UHGV virus genome: UHGV-0095173
DNA from: a virus
DNA length: 16,150 bases
Direction: 5' to 3' (one strand)
A program made the position numbers and the translations under genes. A model generated the notes under the pieces. That model was not told the origin of the DNA. It worked only from the letters and a program-made list of their open reading frames with translations, and ran no database searches. Below are positions 1,349-16,150 of the stretch, piece after piece. Each line of letters opens with the position of its first letter. Position 1 is the first letter of the stretch.

Positions 1349-2219
1349 TTCCGACCTCCATTGCTAAACGGGACTGGATAGCTGCCGCTTTACTGCCTAA
1401 TTGCAGGTAAGTACGAGTTATCGCAGGGTTGCTATGACCCAGCATTTCAGAGGCCACTAATAGGCCCTGTTCGCCACCTGCGGACATGAGGTTAAAGGCG
1501 GCTATTTTGCGGCTTGAGTAGGCGCTCAGGCGCAATTTAGCGTTAATGAAACGGGTAAACCACGCCATGACGCCATGAAGTTTGCGCCAGATGGTTTGGC
1601 GAGTAACGCTACCTTCCAGACGTTGACAACGGTTACTTTCGATTTGAGAGCGGGAAAATACCAGGTCGTCCTCCACCAGATTCCGATCCTGACGGTCACG
1701 CAGCCGCTTGATAATGCCGGGGGGTAACTGTTTGGTGTCGTGCTTGACGTCAGCCTTAGCCACCAGCCCGAACACAATCGCCTGTTCTTCGTCGTTCATA
1801 TCGGCGGCCAGTTCATCACAGCCGATACTATCCCACTTCATGTAGGCGATATGGTCAGCGGCGAGCCGCGCGGCGTCCTTGCGCTGCTGGCGCACAATTT
1901 CAATACCTTTGCGGGTTGCCCGCGCTTCTGCGGCTTTGGTCTGTTTGGAAACGATAATTGTCGCCTGTCCAGTTTCCCAATTGATGCAGGAATAGCGCAG
2001 GTTGCAAACGTCGCTGGTACGCCAGCCGGTTACGGTCGCAATATCCCACCAGAGCAACACCCAATCGGGCTGTGTCTGCTGGATGCGCTCGCGTAGCTTG
2101 CGCTGCTCGTCACGGTCATAGACAGGGGTCATGGTGCGACTGCCCTTTGTGCTCGCCGCTTTAACGACATTGCCGCGCAGCTCGCGGGCTTTGGCTGTCA
2201 GAGTCTGGAGGTTAAACAT
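1341..2219 (-). CDS. tyrosine recombinase-fold protein (phage integrase family, catalytic domain, about 292 aa)
   Basis: C-terminal LGHSNPAITRTYL matches the tyrosine-recombinase box II signature (His and catalytic Tyr). Box I-like TGWRTSDVCNLRY. The usual HxxR appears as SSRK. Start placed at ATG 2219 (MFNLQ...) because GGAGGTG sits 4 nt upstream; the track's longer ORF begins at a TTG at 2312. Confidence 0.65.
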   Translation of the reverse strand: MFNLQTLTAKARELRGNVVKAASTKGSRTMTPVYDRDEQRKLRERIQQTQPDWVLLWWDIATVTGWRTSDVCNLRYSCINWETGQATIIVSKQTKAAEARATRKGIEIVRQQRKDAARLAADHIAYMKWDSIGCDELAADMNDEEQAIVFGLVAKADVKHDTKQLPPGIIKRLRDRQDRNLVEDDLVFSRSQIESNRCQRLEGSVTRQTIWRKLHGVMAWFTRFINAKLRLSAYSSRKIAAFNLMSAGGEQGLLVASEMLGHSNPAITRTYLQLGSKAAAIQSRLAMEVGNA

Positions 2220-3843: not shown

Positions 3844-4170
3844 ATGGCAAGTCGATATAAAGGCCGGGTTATTGGCTTCGGTGCCAATATCATTTCTCCG
3901 AAATTTCATAACGCCTGTAATCGCTCGTTTCCCCATCTTGGGGACATTTCAAAACTGCGAATCAAAGTGCGAATGGAACTGCGAATTCGCAAAGAGAGAG
4001 CGCCGCTCAAAGCAGGCCGGATAAGGCTTCGCGGACATATTGCGAATGCGAATCCACCAGAAACGAAACGCGAATCACCCATAAACAAAACCGATACGCA
4101 GGGAGCGTACTGCCCGTATTCAATCGGCCGAAAAGTCAGCCGATTAAAATCATGCCCGGCTATCCCCTGA
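3844..4170 (+). pseudogene. terS-like relic: diverged inverted copy of the 5' part of the prophage small-terminase gene (possibly an intact 108-codon ORF)
   Basis: An 18-mer caccagaaacgaaacgcg at 4055-4072 is identical to the reverse complement of terS 11811-11828. TGCGAAT repeats at 3956-4075 mirror those at 11904-11958. The frame from ATG 3844 gives MASRYKGRVIGFGANIISPKFHNACNRSFPHLGDISKLRIK..., resembling TerS MAKPDWGELQQRFLSEHAKTGISPKEWCEAQGLNYSTAKRYIKIA. The repeat block is read in a different frame from terS and I found no convincing RBS. Confidence 0.3.
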
Positions 4171-4630
4171 AATTTCAGGAGATCGAGAGCCACCAGCAGA
4201 GAACCGTTCATGCCATCGGTAACTTGCAGCCCGAAGCTCAAATCTGAGCGTTGACCGCCAGCCAGAAGAAACCATTTTAAATCCCGCGCCTTCTCTTTGG
4301 ATGAACAGGGTTACTCCCCGTAATGCTGTGAACTGCCACGATGATTCGGGGTTGTGTTGCGCTGGCCTTTGAGTCCCGCACAAACACTGACCCACAAAAT
4401 TTTTGTAGGTGACTGGCCCTCTTGATGAGGTGCTGTTTTGCGTAACCCTTAATGAGTTGTGCAAAGGCTCAACCCTTTAAAAGGGTTGCCTAACCACCGG
4501 CGATAGTAATAACCGCCAACCTATGAACACTATGAACACCTTTGAGCATTTTTCTATAAACATTCCACTACTGCCCTATTTGATGCCTTTCTCTGGCTGG
4601 CCTGTGTAAGTTACCGTTGCTGGGAACTGA

Positions 4631-4668
4631 CAATAAAAAAGGCTTGCCCCTCTCAGGTAACAAGCCTT
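4631..4668 (-). terminator. intrinsic terminator downstream of alpA
   Basis: Minus strand: 8-bp stem AAGGCTTG / CAAGCCTT with a 14-nt loop followed by TTTTTATTG, about 20 nt past the alpA stop. Confidence 0.5.
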
Positions 4669-4685
4669 GTCTATCGCTCTGGATC

Positions 4686-4898
4686 TCACTCACTACAGAT
4701 TCCGCGCTTTTGGCTCTGTCTTCCGATCCACGCCTCCACCTCATCGCGATACCAGCAATTGCGGCCGCCAACTTTGAAGGGCATCGGAAAGCCGTTCCCC
4801 TCATCCTTCAGAAATTCATAGAACGCAGAATCAGAACGGTAGCGTAGACGGGCTTTAACTTCGACTTTGAGCAAAATATCACTGTTAGATATGGACAT
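4686..4898 (-). CDS. alpA: AlpA-family transcriptional regulator / excisionase-like protein (70 aa)
   Basis: GFPMPFKVGGRNCWYRDEVEAWI matches the AlpA signature (FP-P-K-GGR-W-EVE-WI). GAGG RBS 5 nt upstream of ATG 4898. Sits next to a P4-type integrase. Confidence 0.85.
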   Translation of the reverse strand: MSISNSDILLKVEVKARLRYRSDSAFYEFLKDEGNGFPMPFKVGGRNCWYRDEVEAWIGRQSQKRGICSE

Positions 4899-5040: not shown

Positions 5041-6270
5041 TTACACAACCAGCCTCAAGCCCTTATCGCCGCTGGTCTCCAGTATTTCGCCACACTCTGC
5101 GGCCTCGATAAAGTCCCCCCACCATTGCATTAAAACCCGGCGTTTTTCCAGATAGTCGCTACGGTTATAAACATTTCGAATCGCATCGGCGCTTTTGTGA
5201 GCGAGTGCAGCCTCAATCACATCAGGGTTGAACCCCTCGTCATTTAAAACTGTAGATGCCAACGCCCTGAACCCATGAGGAACAATCAGCCCTTTAAACG
5301 ACGTTTTGTGTATCCCGGCCTGAGTCGCACAGCGTGAGATCGGCTTATTTTCTTTTCGCCATGAGGGGAAAACATAATCGCAGCGCTTCCACTTTTCGGC
5401 CTCTTTAAGCACGTTTATAGCCTGGCTCGATAATGGGACTACGTGGGGGCGCTTTCCTTTCATCCGGCTTGCAGGGATTTGCCAGATTGAGTTATCAAAA
5501 TCAATCTCATTCCAGAGAGCGCCGCCAGCCTCCGAAGGCCGGACCATCGTAATGATCTGGAATAATAATGCCAGCTTTGATGGCTCCCATAAGCTCAACT
5601 CGTTCCATGCGCTTAAAAATTCGGGCAACCGCTCTTTCTGTAAAGTCGCTCTTGGCTCGTTTTTTTCAGCCGGGAATGCTTTACCAATTTTCGATAGCGG
5701 GTTGTGCTCAATAACCCCAATGTTTACCGCATAATCCATTATGGCGTTGATGGTAATAACCATTTTCGTAAGCGTTGATGGCCTTTCCCTGAAAGGTTTA
5801 AAAGCCTGAATAGTATCGGCTGCGTTTATTTTATGTACCGTGGTATGCCTAAAAATCGTGGAAAGATGCTTCAACGTCACATTGTGCGATTCAAGCGTGT
5901 TGCTTCTCGCACCTTCTTTAATCTTGATTTTTAGCCATTCATCGGCAACGGCCTGAAATGACTGCGCGTACATTTTACGCTGTTCATTCCTGGCATCTTT
6001 TTTGACTTCGTTCGGATCTATCCCTCGCGCTACCATACGGCGCAGTTTCGAACGTTCCTCCCTCGCTTCGGACAAAGTAAACTCCGGGTATCGTCCAATA
6101 GTATAGGTTTGTCTCTTCTTCGTTACCGGGTGTACATACCGAAAACGCCATGACTTACCGCCCCGGCTTGTGATGTAAAGCAACAAACCGAAACCATCGT
6201 GCAAACTGAAATCCTTGCCCTGTGCCTTCGCGCTTTTCACTTCGACGCTAGTTAGTGGCCTAACAATCAT
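5041..6270 (-). CDS. int: tyrosine-type site-specific integrase, P4-like (409 aa)
   Basis: N-terminal arm-binding-type domain (GKSWRFRYVHPVTKKRQTYTIGRYPEFTLSEAREE). C-terminal catalytic region with HGFRALAST and downstream Tyr (RNVYNRSDY). GAGG RBS 7 nt upstream of ATG 6270. Confidence 0.95.
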   Translation of the reverse strand: MIVRPLTSVEVKSAKAQGKDFSLHDGFGLLLYITSRGGKSWRFRYVHPVTKKRQTYTIGRYPEFTLSEAREERSKLRRMVARGIDPNEVKKDARNEQRKMYAQSFQAVADEWLKIKIKEGARSNTLESHNVTLKHLSTIFRHTTVHKINAADTIQAFKPFRERPSTLTKMVITINAIMDYAVNIGVIEHNPLSKIGKAFPAEKNEPRATLQKERLPEFLSAWNELSLWEPSKLALLFQIITMVRPSEAGGALWNEIDFDNSIWQIPASRMKGKRPHVVPLSSQAINVLKEAEKWKRCDYVFPSWRKENKPISRCATQAGIHKTSFKGLIVPHGFRALASTVLNDEGFNPDVIEAALAHKSADAIRNVYNRSDYLEKRRVLMQWWGDFIEAAECGEILETSGDKGLRLVV

Positions 6271-13100: not shown

Positions 13101-13580
13101 TTATTTCAGGCATTGCGTCCTGATGTATTCCTGCAGATAGCCAACCTGCTTCGTCACTGTGACGATTCGCTCTCTGAGGGTGAAATAATCCCGTTCAGCG
13201 GAGTCAGTAAGTCGGGGGCCGGTAACATCGCCCAGGCCGCCGGTGCTGGTCGCTCCGTTCGCGGGACATCTGGCGTTGACGTGCAGCCCACACTTGCCAG
13301 TGCGAACACAACGCTGCAAATCATCAAGCTGCTTTTTAGCATCAGCTAAGTCCTTCGTGTATTTGGCATCCAGCACCGCTGCATCACGCTGGCGGATCTG
13401 CATGTCTTTGATGGTGGCGTTCGCCTGGTTAAGATTCTTAATGGCTTTATCGCGCTGGTCTTTGTAGGTGATGGCGTTGCCGCGGTAGTGGTTAATAGCC
13501 CAAGCCATGGAAACCATCAGGCAGATAACGACAGCACAGATAATTGCTGTTAATCGGCTCACTAATCTAACCCCCAACAC
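13101..13580 (-). CDS. Rz: Rz-like i-spanin
   Basis: Strong resemblance to lambda Rz as I recall it (N-terminal TM segment, [31 protein letters not shown]). The track start at 13580 is GTG; the true start may be the GTG at 13562 (VSRLTAII...). Confidence 0.85.
13154..13342 (-). CDS. Rz1: Rz1-like o-spanin lipoprotein, embedded in Rz in another frame
   Basis: Lipobox ALASVGC followed by T; proline-rich; C-terminal [11 protein letters not shown] as in lambda Rz1; lies wholly inside Rz. Confidence 0.8.
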
Positions 13581-14107
13581 GCCAGCGCGCTTTCCTGGTC
13601 CCGTCTCTCAACCTGACCATAGCAGCCATTCTTCTGGCCTTTGGTTAGTCGGCAATCGCGGCCACCGTCTTTAATCCACCAGCGGATAGCTTCACAGGCT
13701 CCTTTCGTATCGCCAGCATTAATTCGCTTATAGAACGTAGACGGGAAACATTTTCCGGGGCCGATGTTATATGGGCAGAAAGAAGCGATACCCGCTTTCT
13801 GTGGTTCGGTCAGTGGTACTTTGATATTTCGGTCAACCCACGCCAGCGCCTTGTCGCGTTCAATGGCGTTTACCTGGGCGCATTTCTCAGCTGACAGCTT
13901 CATGCCCTGTACTACTGGCTTGCCATCAACCATTGTTGCACCACGGCAAATGGTCCAGAGTCCGCCGCCGTCGCGATATGCTGTCAAGCTGTTACCCTCT
14001 TTCTCATCCAGAAACTGATCGAGAATCACGGGTGCGGAAGCCCCGGCAAGAATCAAACCAACGACCGCTGCGCTCAATTTATTCTTCAGCTTTAGAGACA
14101 TAGCCAT
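13562..14107 (-). CDS. SAR endolysin (T4-lysozyme-like muramidase with N-terminal signal-anchor-release domain)
   Basis: N-terminal weakly hydrophobic Gly/Ala-rich segment [19 protein letters not shown] right after a basic stretch. Glu-8aa-Asp-5aa-Thr catalytic triad in [16 protein letters not shown]. Follows the holin. Confidence 0.9.
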
Positions 14108-14357
14108 TGCGCCGATCCTCCCGTTCTTTCCAGCGGAAATACCAGTTCACTGCACAGGTGATTACCGTGCATGCGATACCGACAATAATTGCCCAGTCGC
14201 TCAGGCTTAACCCTGCAATTCTGTCGGCCAACATCCAGGACACCTCTTTTGCTGTTTTTGCTGTTTCGGCATATGCCTTCGCTGATACACCGCAGCCGGT
14301 CAGCGTGGTGCCTGTTCCATATGAAAGTCTGCTGTAAATGGTGCTCATTCTGGTCAT
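14079..14357 (-). CDS. class II holin, pinholin-like (phage 21 S-like, 92 aa)
   Basis: Two predicted TM segments, the first Gly/Ser/Thr-rich. C-terminus NWYFRWKEREDRR resembles the S21 tail. MTRM dual-start motif. GGAGGTG RBS. Overlaps the endolysin start. Confidence 0.75.
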   Translation of the reverse strand: MTRMSTIYSRLSYGTGTTLTGCGVSAKAYAETAKTAKEVSWMLADRIAGLSLSDWAIIVGIACTVITCAVNWYFRWKEREDRRNGYVSKAEE

Positions 14358-14586
14358 AGCCTCACCTCCGATTCTTCGGATGGCGCTGTGTGTGTATGAA
14401 AAGGGTCAGGCCCTCGGGACGATTTAACAAGAAGGCATGTCGATGATGGTTCCCGTGAGCCTGAAATAGAAAGCCCCAGCAAATGCCTAGGCTAAATGAG
14501 GTGCCAGATCATATATCTGGCCGTATAACCTTGCGTTTGGTATTATTAAATCGCCAAAAGTAACCCTTCAAACACAAGGATTTAAA

Positions 14587-15117
14587 ATGACAAAAAGGAA
14601 GTACCGATTTTATCATGCGGACAGGGGTAACTTGCTGAGCCCTGACATGACAATAATCCCTGTAAATGGCCTCTCTTCATTTGGAAAGCATTATCTCTCC
14701 CGGATAAATAGTGGAAATATGAGCGACGTGCTAGACGAAAATGTACAAAGAGAGATGCTGTATGAAAATGTGCGGATGGAAAATTTCCCATCCCGCCCAA
14801 GCCGATTCTCGTGCCTTTTTGGTGCGAACTCCATTCCTGAAGCGGAAAGCTTCGCCAGAAAGATAATCCCGCAACCGACCACCCCAATTAATATTTATGA
14901 AGTTTTTACTGAAAATTTTGTGATTCTCGATATGAATTGGATGGATTACATAACAACAGATTTCGGTAGTAGGGTTGAATATGCCCGGCAGTACTGGTAT
15001 TCATCAATTACCCAGCACGCCCCACTTACCGGCGATAGGATGATACCAACCCTGGAAGTCCTGCTGCCGCTTCCCGTGGAAGTAGGCAAGCAAGTCAGTA
15101 CTGTCGCTTTTGATTAA
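14587..15117 (+). CDS. hypothetical protein (176 aa), accessory (moron-like) gene antisense to the late operon
   Basis: ORF track entry. AAGGA RBS 6 nt upstream of ATG. Only sizeable plus-strand gene in the window. Looks AT-rich by eye. Sits between the late promoter and the holin. No family recognised. Confidence 0.6.
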   Translation: MTKRKYRFYHADRGNLLSPDMTIIPVNGLSSFGKHYLSRINSGNMSDVLDENVQREMLYENVRMENFPSRPSRFSCLFGANSIPEAESFARKIIPQPTTPINIYEVFTENFVILDMNWMDYITTDFGSRVEYARQYWYSSITQHAPLTGDRMIPTLEVLLPLPVEVGKQVSTVAFD

Positions 15118-15286
15118 TCTGACAGTTCTGCTCAGGGAAATGGGCCAAAGGTTTATGTAAAGTCCAAAGCACTTCGGAAAGGATAGCTTTATATAGCTCA
15201 CCATCATTTGCATGATAGCGAAACCTTTCAGAAGGTGAGATTTCGAAAAGTACCTTTCCCTCATCTGAAACAATTCGGACTTTCAT
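15095..15286 (-). CDS. hypothetical small protein (63 aa), first ORF downstream of the late promoter and terminator
   Basis: GGAGG RBS 4 nt upstream of ATG 15286. Converges on the 176-aa gene with a 23-bp 3' overlap. AT-rich. Confidence 0.4.
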   Translation of the reverse strand: MKVRIVSDEGKVLFEISPSERFRYHANDGELYKAILSEVLWTLHKPLAHFPEQNCQINQKRQY

Positions 15287-15334
15287 CTTTCCTCCAAATT
15301 AGAAGCTACTGATTCAGTTATTACTTACTCCAGA

Positions 15335-15370
15335 AACGCAAAAGCCCCACGGTGTTATCCGCAGGGCTTT
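15335..15370 (-). terminator. tR'-like intrinsic terminator downstream of the late promoter
   Basis: Minus-strand hairpin CCCTGCGG-ATAACA-CCGTGGGG (two G-U wobbles) followed by CTTTTGCGTTTC; alternative 7-bp stem AAAGCCC / GGGCTTT. Confidence 0.45.
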
Positions 15371-15400
15371 AAACGAAGGCATTAACCCATCGTTGGGTCA

Positions 15401-15429
15401 AATTTACCCAACTTTATTCAAAAAGTCAA
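15401..15429 (-). promoter_or_regulatory. pR'-like late promoter with qut-like downstream sequence
   Basis: Minus strand TTGACT, 17-nt spacer, TAAATT, then TGACCCAACGATGGGTTAAT, closely resembling the lambda pR'/qut region as I recall it; immediately downstream of Q. Confidence 0.7.
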
Positions 15430-15471
15430 TATTATGCCGTTAATATGTTGCCATCCGTGGCAATCATGCTG

Positions 15472-16095
15472 TTAACGTGTGACCGCATTCAAAATGTTGT
15501 CTGCGATTGACTCTTCTTTGTGGCATTGCACCACCAGAGCGTCATACAGCGGCTTAACAGTGCGTGACCAGGTGGGTTGGGTAAGGTTTGGGATTAGCAT
15601 CGTCACAGCGCGATATGCGGCGCTTGCTGGCATCCTTGAATAGCCGACACCTTTGCATCTTCCGCACTCTTTCTCAACAACTCTCCCCCACTGCTCTGTT
15701 TTGGCTATATCAACCGCACGGCCTGTACCGTGGCAATCTCTGCATCTTGCACCCGGCGTCGCGGCACTACGGCAATAATCCGCATAAGCGAATGTTGCGA
15801 GCACTTGCAGTACCTTTGCCTTAGTATTTCCTTCGAGCTTTGCCACACCACGGTATTTCCCCGATACCTTGTGTGCAAATTGCATCAGATAGTTGATAGC
15901 CTTTTGTTTGTCGTTCTGGCTGAGTTCATGCTTACCGCAGAATGCAGCCATTCCGAATCCGGCTTGTGATTGCGCCATCCCCATAGCAGCCATCACATCA
16001 GTACCGGAAAGAGAGTCAGAAGCCGTAGCCCGTGGTGAGTCGCTCATCATCGGGCTTTTTGGCGAATGAAATTTAGCTACGCTTTCGAGTCTCAT
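15472..16095 (-). CDS. Q: late-gene antitermination protein Q (lambda-type, 207 aa)
   Basis: Sequence MRLESVAKFHSPKSP... with zinc-binding CRDCHGTG...CGRCKGVG appears essentially identical to lambda Q from memory. GGAGAAGG RBS. Confidence 0.95.
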   Translation of the reverse strand: MRLESVAKFHSPKSPMMSDSPRATASDSLSGTDVMAAMGMAQSQAGFGMAAFCGKHELSQNDKQKAINYLMQFAHKVSGKYRGVAKLEGNTKAKVLQVLATFAYADYCRSAATPGARCRDCHGTGRAVDIAKTEQWGRVVEKECGRCKGVGYSRMPASAAYRAVTMLIPNLTQPTWSRTVKPLYDALVVQCHKEESIADNILNAVTR

Positions 16096-16150
16096 GCGCC
16101 TTCTCCCTGTACCTGAATCAATGTGAGGTTTCCGCAGAACACTGCGCCGG
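16092..16150 (-). CDS. 3' end of an upstream (nin-region-like) gene, partial
   Basis: One minus-strand frame is open from the window edge and ends in TGA overlapping the Q start (ATGA). Only 18 codons are visible (...GAVFCGNLTLIQVQGEGA). Confidence 0.25.
   Translation of the reverse strand, partial: GAVFCGNLTLIQVQGEGA

Follow-up and report, generated by a model that had tools for sequence, protein, structure and literature searches.

A convergent DUF2441 gene pair between late-strand terminators of a lambdoid prophage: a candidate effector with a possible late-supplied neutraliser

Why should a prophage keep a gene for an enzyme-like protein pointing against its own late transcription? The question is raised by the virus genome UHGV-0095173, a stretch of 16,150 nucleotides (nt; "the window" below), in whose lambdoid prophage two genes converge and overlap at their 3' ends. 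The larger gene (14587–15117, plus strand) encodes a DUF2441 protein of 176 amino acids (aa) with a predicted fold of the ADP-ribosyltransferase clan and is antisense to the late operon; the smaller (15095–15286, minus strand) encodes 63 aa and points in the same direction as the late operon. The two open reading frames (ORFs) share 23 nt (15095–15117). Shine–Dalgarno sequences, the ribosome-binding sites (RBSs), precede both: AAGGA (14576–14580, plus strand), 6 nt before the ATG of the 176-aa gene and kept in six lineages, and GGAGG (15295–15291, minus strand), 4 nt ahead of the ATG of the small gene. An original prediction for this DNA, made from the letters alone, had described this arrangement, including the antisense orientation of the larger gene, and all of its coordinates proved correct; its reading of the locus holds up in part. 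The answer that we tentatively put forward, as a possible account, is that the lysogen makes the enzyme as a defence effector, and that late transcription driven by the antiterminator Q both silences the enzyme gene and supplies the small protein as a self-antidote. With two genes in ≈830 bp, the locus offers a compact handle on this idea, and it predicts a neutraliser partner that is expressed late.

A convergent pair conserved across Enterobacterales

Eight lineages were examined: Escherichia, Salmonella, Erwinia tracheiphila, Serratia, Hafnia, Enterobacter, Providencia and Photorhabdus. In every one of these Enterobacterales, an ORF of 61–94 aa related to the 63-aa protein runs convergently into the 3' end of the DUF2441 gene, with an overlap of exactly 23 nt in five lineages and of 18–44 nt in the others. 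Protein identity between the window copy and its homologues (in Salmonella, Erwinia, Serratia, Hafnia, Enterobacter, Providencia and Photorhabdus) is 41–55% in three lineages and ≈23–37% in the most divergent, and the conserved core of the family reads MKV.I.SD.GKV.F...L..A.L.E..W. In all annotated contexts, the enzyme gene runs against the flanking phage genes and the small gene along with them.

The original prediction had set the pair in an accessory slot between Q and the holin gene. This position is shared by the Escherichia, Salmonella and Enterobacter pairs, and the Serratia pair sits just upstream of a holin. The interval is indeed an accessory site here, but the pair is not tied to it: the Erwinia copy lies within a tail-gene block, whose products match tail families of E217 phage, and that of Providencia lies between the lysis genes and the small terminase gene. 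Next to its DUF2441 pair, the Serratia prophage carries a second convergent pair with a 24-nt overlap, consisting of a DUF1883 protein of 89 aa (5812–6081 of locus L012, plus strand) and a 59-aa ORF (6058–6237, minus strand).

Codon comparisons indicate that the 63-aa ORF is a genuine coding gene under purifying selection, which, together with its conserved position in eight genera, bears out the earlier view of it as real. Relative to the Salmonella copy (90% nucleotide identity) there are seven synonymous and two non-synonymous changes, giving a ratio of non-synonymous to synonymous substitution rates (dN/dS) of 0.07. The differences at codon positions 1, 2 and 3 number 2, 0 and 7, a pattern unique to this frame; the five other reading frames gave a dN/dS of at least 0.21, or zero synonymous changes. 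The protein is conserved and non-hydrophobic, and searches of Pfam, PHROGs, PADLOC and NCBIfam with it returned no match. Searched exhaustively with phmmer, 1.84 billion representative proteins yielded about four genuine clusters of the family, all of 51–63 aa, and on this count the family is tiny and confined to its partnership with DUF2441. Three long repeat proteins that the same search returned for the small protein were judged spurious after two of them had been read.

One viral contig (L041) carries an intact small gene (1403–1612, plus strand) upstream of a holin, next to a DUF2441 remnant (1572–1658) in which the enzyme gene is reduced to its last 29 codons. The dN/dS of this orphan relative to its nearest relative is 0.20, and its integrity shows that the small gene can persist alone.

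An ADP-ribosyltransferase-type fold

For the 176-aa protein the original prediction had recognised no family. It does in fact match Pfam DUF2441 (PF10386) at 33.5 bits (E = 5e-08), where the curated gathering cut-off for the whole-protein hidden Markov model score is 25 bits, and it also matches phrog_5663. An AlphaFold2 model built on an alignment of 39 homologues reached a mean predicted local distance difference test (pLDDT) score of 94.8, and the predicted fold is an ADP-ribosyltransferase core, common to the solved DUF2441 structure BC2332 (PDB 2AUA). DUF2441 is placed among the families of the Pfam ADP-ribosyltransferase clan in PMC7955679. BC2332, a structural-genomics protein of Bacillus cereus that is 22% identical to the window protein, has no known function, so that membership of DUF2441 says nothing about mechanism, and the definition of the family includes neither a prophage setting nor a convergent partner. 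No functional characterisation of DUF2441 was found in the searchable literature, and an NCBIfam search with the 176-aa and 63-aa proteins gave no match.

The triad of ADP-ribosyltransferases is of the H-Y-E or R-S-E type and lies on strands 1, 2 and 5. Within the 176-aa subfamily, residues H10, S72, R73, F78, E105, D115, D120, Y136 and E157 are invariant, and across three DUF2441 subfamilies R13, S72, R73, F78, S82, E105, D115 and E157 are invariant; H10 is fixed solely in the 176-aa subfamily and is S or T in the two sister subfamilies. Judging from this pattern, the protein is perhaps an active enzyme, possibly with an R-S-E-like site, the residues being only provisionally assigned to the triad positions.

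In a fold search, the model resembled Salmonella effectors as well as the A subunits of two toxins, heat-labile enterotoxin and pertussis toxin; a search of BFVD matched only uncharacterised phage proteins. The former result raises the question of whether the gene is lysogenic-conversion cargo like Stx or LT-II, encoding a virulence effector or toxin directed against eukaryotes. The Q-to-holin slot of lambdoid phages is the classical toxin slot, and the carriers of the pair include the plant and insect pathogens Erwinia tracheiphila, Photorhabdus and Serratia. However, no B subunit, delivery or secretion partner is adjacent, and homologues occur in free-living Brevundimonas, in Caulobacterales and in environmental metagenomes. 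Moreover, Stx is co-directional with the late genes, so that lysis releases it, whereas the 176-aa gene opposes them. With no specific support for it, a virulence role is highly improbable.

The Salmonella homologue is annotated as 220 aa (loci L008–L011; e.g., 97–759 of L009), with an N-terminal extension of 44 codons. This start was rejected: the extension spans the hairpin, promoter and leader described below and is missing from all other lineages, and the annotation is probably a start-site mis-call. A DUF2441-annotated gene, STM14_RS06850, was detected and mildly up-regulated in RNA sequencing (RNA-seq) of a non-induced S. Typhimurium 14028S mutant (PMC9867438), a faint indication that there may be DUF2441 genes with expression under ordinary growth.

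Further homologues lie in other settings. In Pseudomonas (loci L025, 4001–5196, and L030, 3992–5131), the DUF2441 gene is found within a lambda-like tail module, opposing the tail genes; downstream of it are co-directional small genes, including one for a 61–82-aa protein conserved in both loci (…DGRLLVSLE…), which could be a differently arranged partner. Two distant homologues, in the loci L147 (922–3516) and L148 (1526–3510), have neighbours with a weak association with defence: one lies 49 nt downstream of the gene for a 676-aa DUF4365-TPR protein, and the other, 45% identical, about 500 nt from a match to the PADLOC defence candidate PDC-S02 (E = 1.4e-21).

Terminators, promoter and a portable module

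The minus strand of the window's prophage is its late region, with Q, pR'/qut/tR', holin, lysozyme, Rz and Rz1. The Q gene (15472–16095, minus strand; PF03589 Antiterm, 1.3e-57; phrog_127, 6.6e-83) heads the late transcription unit. A promoter scan found a pR'-like late promoter of the lambda type, TTGACT-17-TAAATT, at 15429–15401 (minus strand), and the block comprising pR', qut and tR' (15334–15471) is 87–95% identical to the annotated pR'/qut sites of HK97, HK022, HK140 and others. It ends in a tR'-like intrinsic terminator, T1 (15334–15367, minus strand; stem 15344–15367), a hairpin of −18.5 kcal/mol followed by TTGCGTTT. The start codon of the small gene lies 55 nt beyond T1, and the 63-aa ORF is, as had been proposed, the first after the terminator. 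On the far side of the pair is a second intrinsic terminator, T2 (14466–14491, minus strand), found by a terminator scan at the holin-proximal edge, and downstream of it on the late strand come the first lysis gene, a class II holin (14079–14357, minus strand; PF16080, 1.7e-11; phrog_20, 2.4e-21), and the lysozyme gene (13562–14107, minus strand).

On the late strand, the pair is thus bracketed by two intrinsic terminators. A T1-equivalent minus-strand hairpin and T tract is present in seven of the eight lineages, 16–66 nt upstream of the small gene start; six of these are strong (−12 to −18.5 kcal/mol) and that of Serratia is weak (−5.5 kcal/mol). T2, again a hairpin with a T tract, is likewise found in seven of eight, with covarying stems, beyond the upstream region of the enzyme gene; in the window it lies within sequence that is also present in empty-site relatives (up to 14494). 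No plus-strand terminator was found after the enzyme gene, both flanking terminators facing the minus strand, so that the overlap of the two transcripts must reach well past the 23 nt shared by the ORFs. A promoter belonging to the small gene itself was considered and rejected: no conserved element lies between T1 and the ATG, and in Serratia, where 16 nt separate the hairpin from the ATG, there is no space for one.

In six lineages the enzyme gene is preceded by the same set of elements: T2, a second hairpin, an extended −10 element (TGnTAtnnT), the leader AAATCGCCAAAAG and the RBS. The extended −10 and the leader are kept in every copy from the Enterobacterales. In the window, the extended −10 reads TGgTATTAT (14538–14546, plus strand), the leader occupies 14548–14560 (plus strand), and the hairpin, a palindrome CCAGAT-N5-ATCTGG at 14504–14520, falls at the −35 position of the predicted promoter. 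On the strength of its consensus, we predict that the extended −10 is the promoter of the 176-aa gene. The −10 that had been suggested earlier (TATAAC, 14524–14529) is not conserved in the six-lineage alignment. The palindrome itself is present as described, but it behaves as a conserved hairpin of variable loop length and not as an operator of fixed spacing: the stem, CCAG(A)...(T)CTGG, is kept in five lineages, and Hafnia has the compensatory variant CCGC...GCGG. Candidate roles for it are that of a DNA site or of an element in the late RNA beside T2.

A sigma-70-type promoter of its own is also what would be expected if the 176-aa protein served the phage directly, as do AcrIF11 and T4 Alt/Mod: it would be an ADP-ribosyltransferase for counter-defence or for host takeover. 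The host-type promoter would then be on at DNA entry and in lysogens and off late, with the small gene either an independent late accessory gene or a regulator. AcrIF11 is carried by phages and plasmids (PMC11383003), and DUF2441 homologues without a partner exist. However, the match to AcrIF11 is weak and partial (74 residues), no better than those to many toxins; the genomic position differs, no aca-type regulator is present, and AcrIF11 lacks a partner such as the one found here. A position opposing the late genes would be unusual for an early anti-defence gene, absence from all 50,697 sequenced phage isolates would be odd for a generally useful function, and partners specific to each enzyme subfamily would be left unexplained. 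We consider this reading unlikely.

The promoter, hairpin and leader form a module, at 14495–14586 in the window, that also occurs ahead of other genes. The exact pattern TGRTATNRTYAAATCKCCAAAA was found in 102 IMG/VR stretches (loci L044–L145), and an 83-nt homologue with ≈80% identity precedes other cargo in ≈240 other E. coli genomes; there it lies in the corresponding slot of a prophage with a trkG gene, ahead of a 53-aa ORF. Among the 79 stretches with enough flank, 46 have the module directly upstream of one of five reference holins, and in many of the remainder it adjoins holin-like membrane ORFs. Through the module, more than 100 additional cassettes that hold other cargo come into view.

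Most of this cargo falls into classes. In the commonest, class A, a protein of ≈50 aa follows the module and its partner on the late strand has 189 aa, with an overlap of 20–32 nt. Three classes carry DUF2441 proteins: B1, the present locus (176 aa, with the 63-aa partner and 23-nt overlap); B2 (179 aa, 32.4 bits; partner of 74 aa across an 11-nt gap, dN/dS 0.11); and B3 (180 aa, 30.5 bits; partner of 73 aa, overlap of 10 nt). Class C encodes a 67-aa zinc-ribbon protein with no clear partner, class D a 92–95-aa protein with a partner of 73–87 aa, and a few instances precede other, unclassified cargo. Compared by profile, the small partners in B1, B2 and B3 (63, 74 and 73 aa) had no similarity that could be detected, and by this measure the three are positional analogues with no homology detected. 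In the class A example L042, the module (3960–4090) is followed by a 53-aa ORF (4087–4248, plus strand) that overlaps a 189-aa gene (4217–4786, minus strand) by 32 nt. The ≈50-aa protein of this class is rich in Pro and Gln and the 189-aa product is a predicted membrane protein, so that here it is the large gene that lies on the late strand; searches of Pfam and PADLOC with both class A proteins gave no match.

That the module is spread more widely than any one cargo (102 viral stretches, ≈240 E. coli genomes and at least four main cargo classes), and mostly lies just upstream of the holin (46 of 79), would suit a function at the RNA level. A plus-strand antisense RNA might quench leaky late or lysis transcription in lysogens, or exclude related phages, with the protein cargo secondary and exchangeable. 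There are precedents: STnc6030 of prophage BTP1, expressed in the lysogen and antisense to late genes, mediates exclusion (PMC7067206, where sieB and its sas antisense RNA are also mentioned), and excludons, in which overlapping convergent transcripts act as mutual switches, are an established concept (PMC12288877). Against this, purifying selection acts on the protein sequences of both the 176-aa and the 63-aa genes, and the model shows an intact enzyme fold; therefore the proteins matter. A purely antisense role would not need a conserved 176-aa enzyme, and the region has no Rfam family match. As the main function of the locus, an RNA-level role is decidedly unlikely.

The tracking of enzyme subfamily by partner identity is shared ground between a defence effector with its antidote and an addiction toxin–antitoxin module. 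In the latter, the enzyme would be a growth-arresting toxin and the 63-aa protein an antitoxin made steadily, at a low level, by leak-through at tR' from the constitutive pR', and the cassette would stabilise the prophage or be triggered when host transcription is shut off. The strict co-occurrence of both genes in Enterobacterales and the strong RBS of the small gene, right behind a terminator downstream of a constitutive promoter, fit such a module. However, the genes converge and form no operon; the Erwinia small gene lies within a tail block, where no constitutive upstream promoter is expected; and no DNA-binding or other antitoxin domain was recognisable in the 63-aa protein with Pfam, PADLOC or NCBIfam. 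Plain addiction would also leave the consistent orientation of the pair relative to the late genes unexplained. On balance, this is rather unlikely to be what the cassette does.

Proposed mechanism, known systems and mobility

An effector with a late-supplied neutraliser seems to us the most economical joint account of the promoter, the orientation, the partner parked behind a terminator and the partners that track the enzyme subfamily, and we give it somewhat less than an even chance. In the lysogen, the enzyme gene would be on from its own host-type extended −10 promoter and the small gene essentially off. The enzyme, possibly by ADP-ribosylating some target, would be the effector of defence against, or exclusion of, an invading phage, or would act by an abortive route. 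Upon induction, the enzyme gene would be traversed head-on by strong late transcription and shut down by collision and double-stranded RNA. Because the small gene lies directly behind a terminator, its message should arise mainly when Q-modified polymerase reads through; the small protein so produced would neutralise the enzyme already present, and the prophage's own late development would therefore be spared. Cognate neutralisers would be expected to differ from one enzyme subfamily to the next, as do the small convergent partners of the three DUF2441 subfamilies, among which no likeness was detected. If the account is right, the prophage arms its host yet does not disarm itself, through gene orientation and antitermination alone.

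Several observations weigh against it. The PADLOC-DB v2.0 models gave no match to the 176-aa or 63-aa proteins at E-values up to 1. The promoter scan did not call the extended −10, because it has no −35 element. A physical interaction between the small protein and the enzyme is conjecture, and the small protein folded poorly when modelled from its single sequence without an alignment (pLDDT 56). DUF2441 homologues without a partner, 39–46% identical, are found in Pseudomonas, a gammaproteobacterial metagenome-assembled genome, Caulobacterales, Brevundimonas and metagenomes; outside the Enterobacterales, the enzyme therefore does not always need a partner. Finally, a strongly toxic enzyme without its partner would kill the lysogen, so that it would have to await a trigger in an inactive state or act selectively on a phage target.

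A broader claim would be that enterobacterial prophages hold a family of two-gene "flip" cassettes built on the portable module, in which late antitermination flips the state from effector-on to antidote-on; this we regard as doubtful. If it were so, self-immune defence would be hard-wired into the phage transcription programme with several interchangeable effector/antidote pairs, namely those of the three DUF2441 subfamilies, the 189-aa membrane protein with its ≈50-aa companion, and a 92-aa protein with one of 76 aa.

ADP-ribosyltransferases are weapons on both sides of phage–host conflict (DarTG, CmdTAC, AcrIF11, T4 Alt/Mod), and prophage accessory genes are a main source of new anti-phage systems. 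Toxins of this kind with cognate neutralisers are known from DarT–DarG, ParT–ParS and other RES–Xre pairs, MbcT–MbcA, TreX–TriX and Tre1–Tri1. Those pairs are co-transcribed, whereas here the genes converge and overlap, and the partner lies on the late strand behind a terminator; in Pfam and PADLOC, the 176-aa and 63-aa proteins matched none of the DarT, ParT, MbcT, TreX or Tre1 type families. Lying convergently on opposite strands, the pair also lacks the co-transcription in an operon that defines type II toxin–antitoxin systems.

Convergent 3' overlap is found in the type I toxin–antitoxin loci txpA/RatA and bsrG/SR4 of Bacillus prophages. Like these and like excludons, the window locus consists of 3'-overlapping convergent units in a prophage, for which mutual exclusion of expression is expected, and, as in an excludon, the ORF overlap and the terminator positions imply a long antisense overlap of the transcripts. 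Unlike in type I loci, both partners are conserved proteins, the large one having a soluble enzyme fold and not being a small hydrophobic peptide. No non-coding antitoxin RNA was evident in an Rfam scan of 14000–16150, which gave only a chance-level match.

In logic, the proposed mechanism resembles SieB/Esc of lambda and P22 and BstA/aba of Salmonella prophages, in which one locus combines an abortive effector expressed in the lysogen with an element that protects the prophage's own lytic growth. The likeness is one of logic only, the proteins being unrelated: Esc is an internal translation product and aba a DNA element, and neither is a convergent late-strand gene.

Lambdoid phages also carry morons, such as bor and lom ("The moron comes of age", PMC3594210). 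Like these, the cassette is a compositionally distinct insert between conserved phage genes, with its own predicted promoter and presence/absence polymorphism. Unlike them, it has two genes on opposite strands, its terminators serve the late strand, and its promoter and leader module is common to unrelated cargo. The locus is best filed beside two known kinds, morons and ADP-ribosyltransferase effectors with cognate partners, and it matched no characterised system; what is novel is the convergent, terminator-bracketed design together with a promoter module common to several cargo pairs.

The cassette is rare, mobile and accessory. A tblastn search of 50,697 GenBank phage records with the 176-aa protein gave no detectable homologue, and a scan of one genome per species across 100,044 species yielded six loci. 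In a megablast search of 5,426 complete E. coli genomes, the inner part (14401–15350) was present in two, at 99.5–99.6% identity, and blastn on the fetched E. coli locus widened the match to 14389–15350 (99%). So sparsely distributed, the 176-aa protein is no conserved component of phage structure or lysis, in keeping with the original prediction. The low GC content that had been noted by eye is also real, at 42–46% in the cassette and 50–54% in the flanks.

The slot survey likewise upheld the description of the Q-to-holin interval as a place for accessory cargo, other cassettes being found there elsewhere. E. coli H6 (L002), a relative by holin and tR', has an empty site with 239 nt of unrelated sequence in the slot, and phage mEp237 (L003) has a different gene there, of 213 aa and co-directional with the late operon. 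The blastn breakpoints against these two relatives place the insert at about 14495–15327. In the two E. coli carriers, the cassette lies between a Q region and a holin that both differ from those of the window, and a Q remnant and two tRNA genes are found upstream of it. In strain MLI104K1 (7048–7480 of L001), these are the C-terminal remnant of a second Q, tRNA-Thr and tRNA-Asn, which suggests that the cassette moved together with part of the pR'/tR' region.

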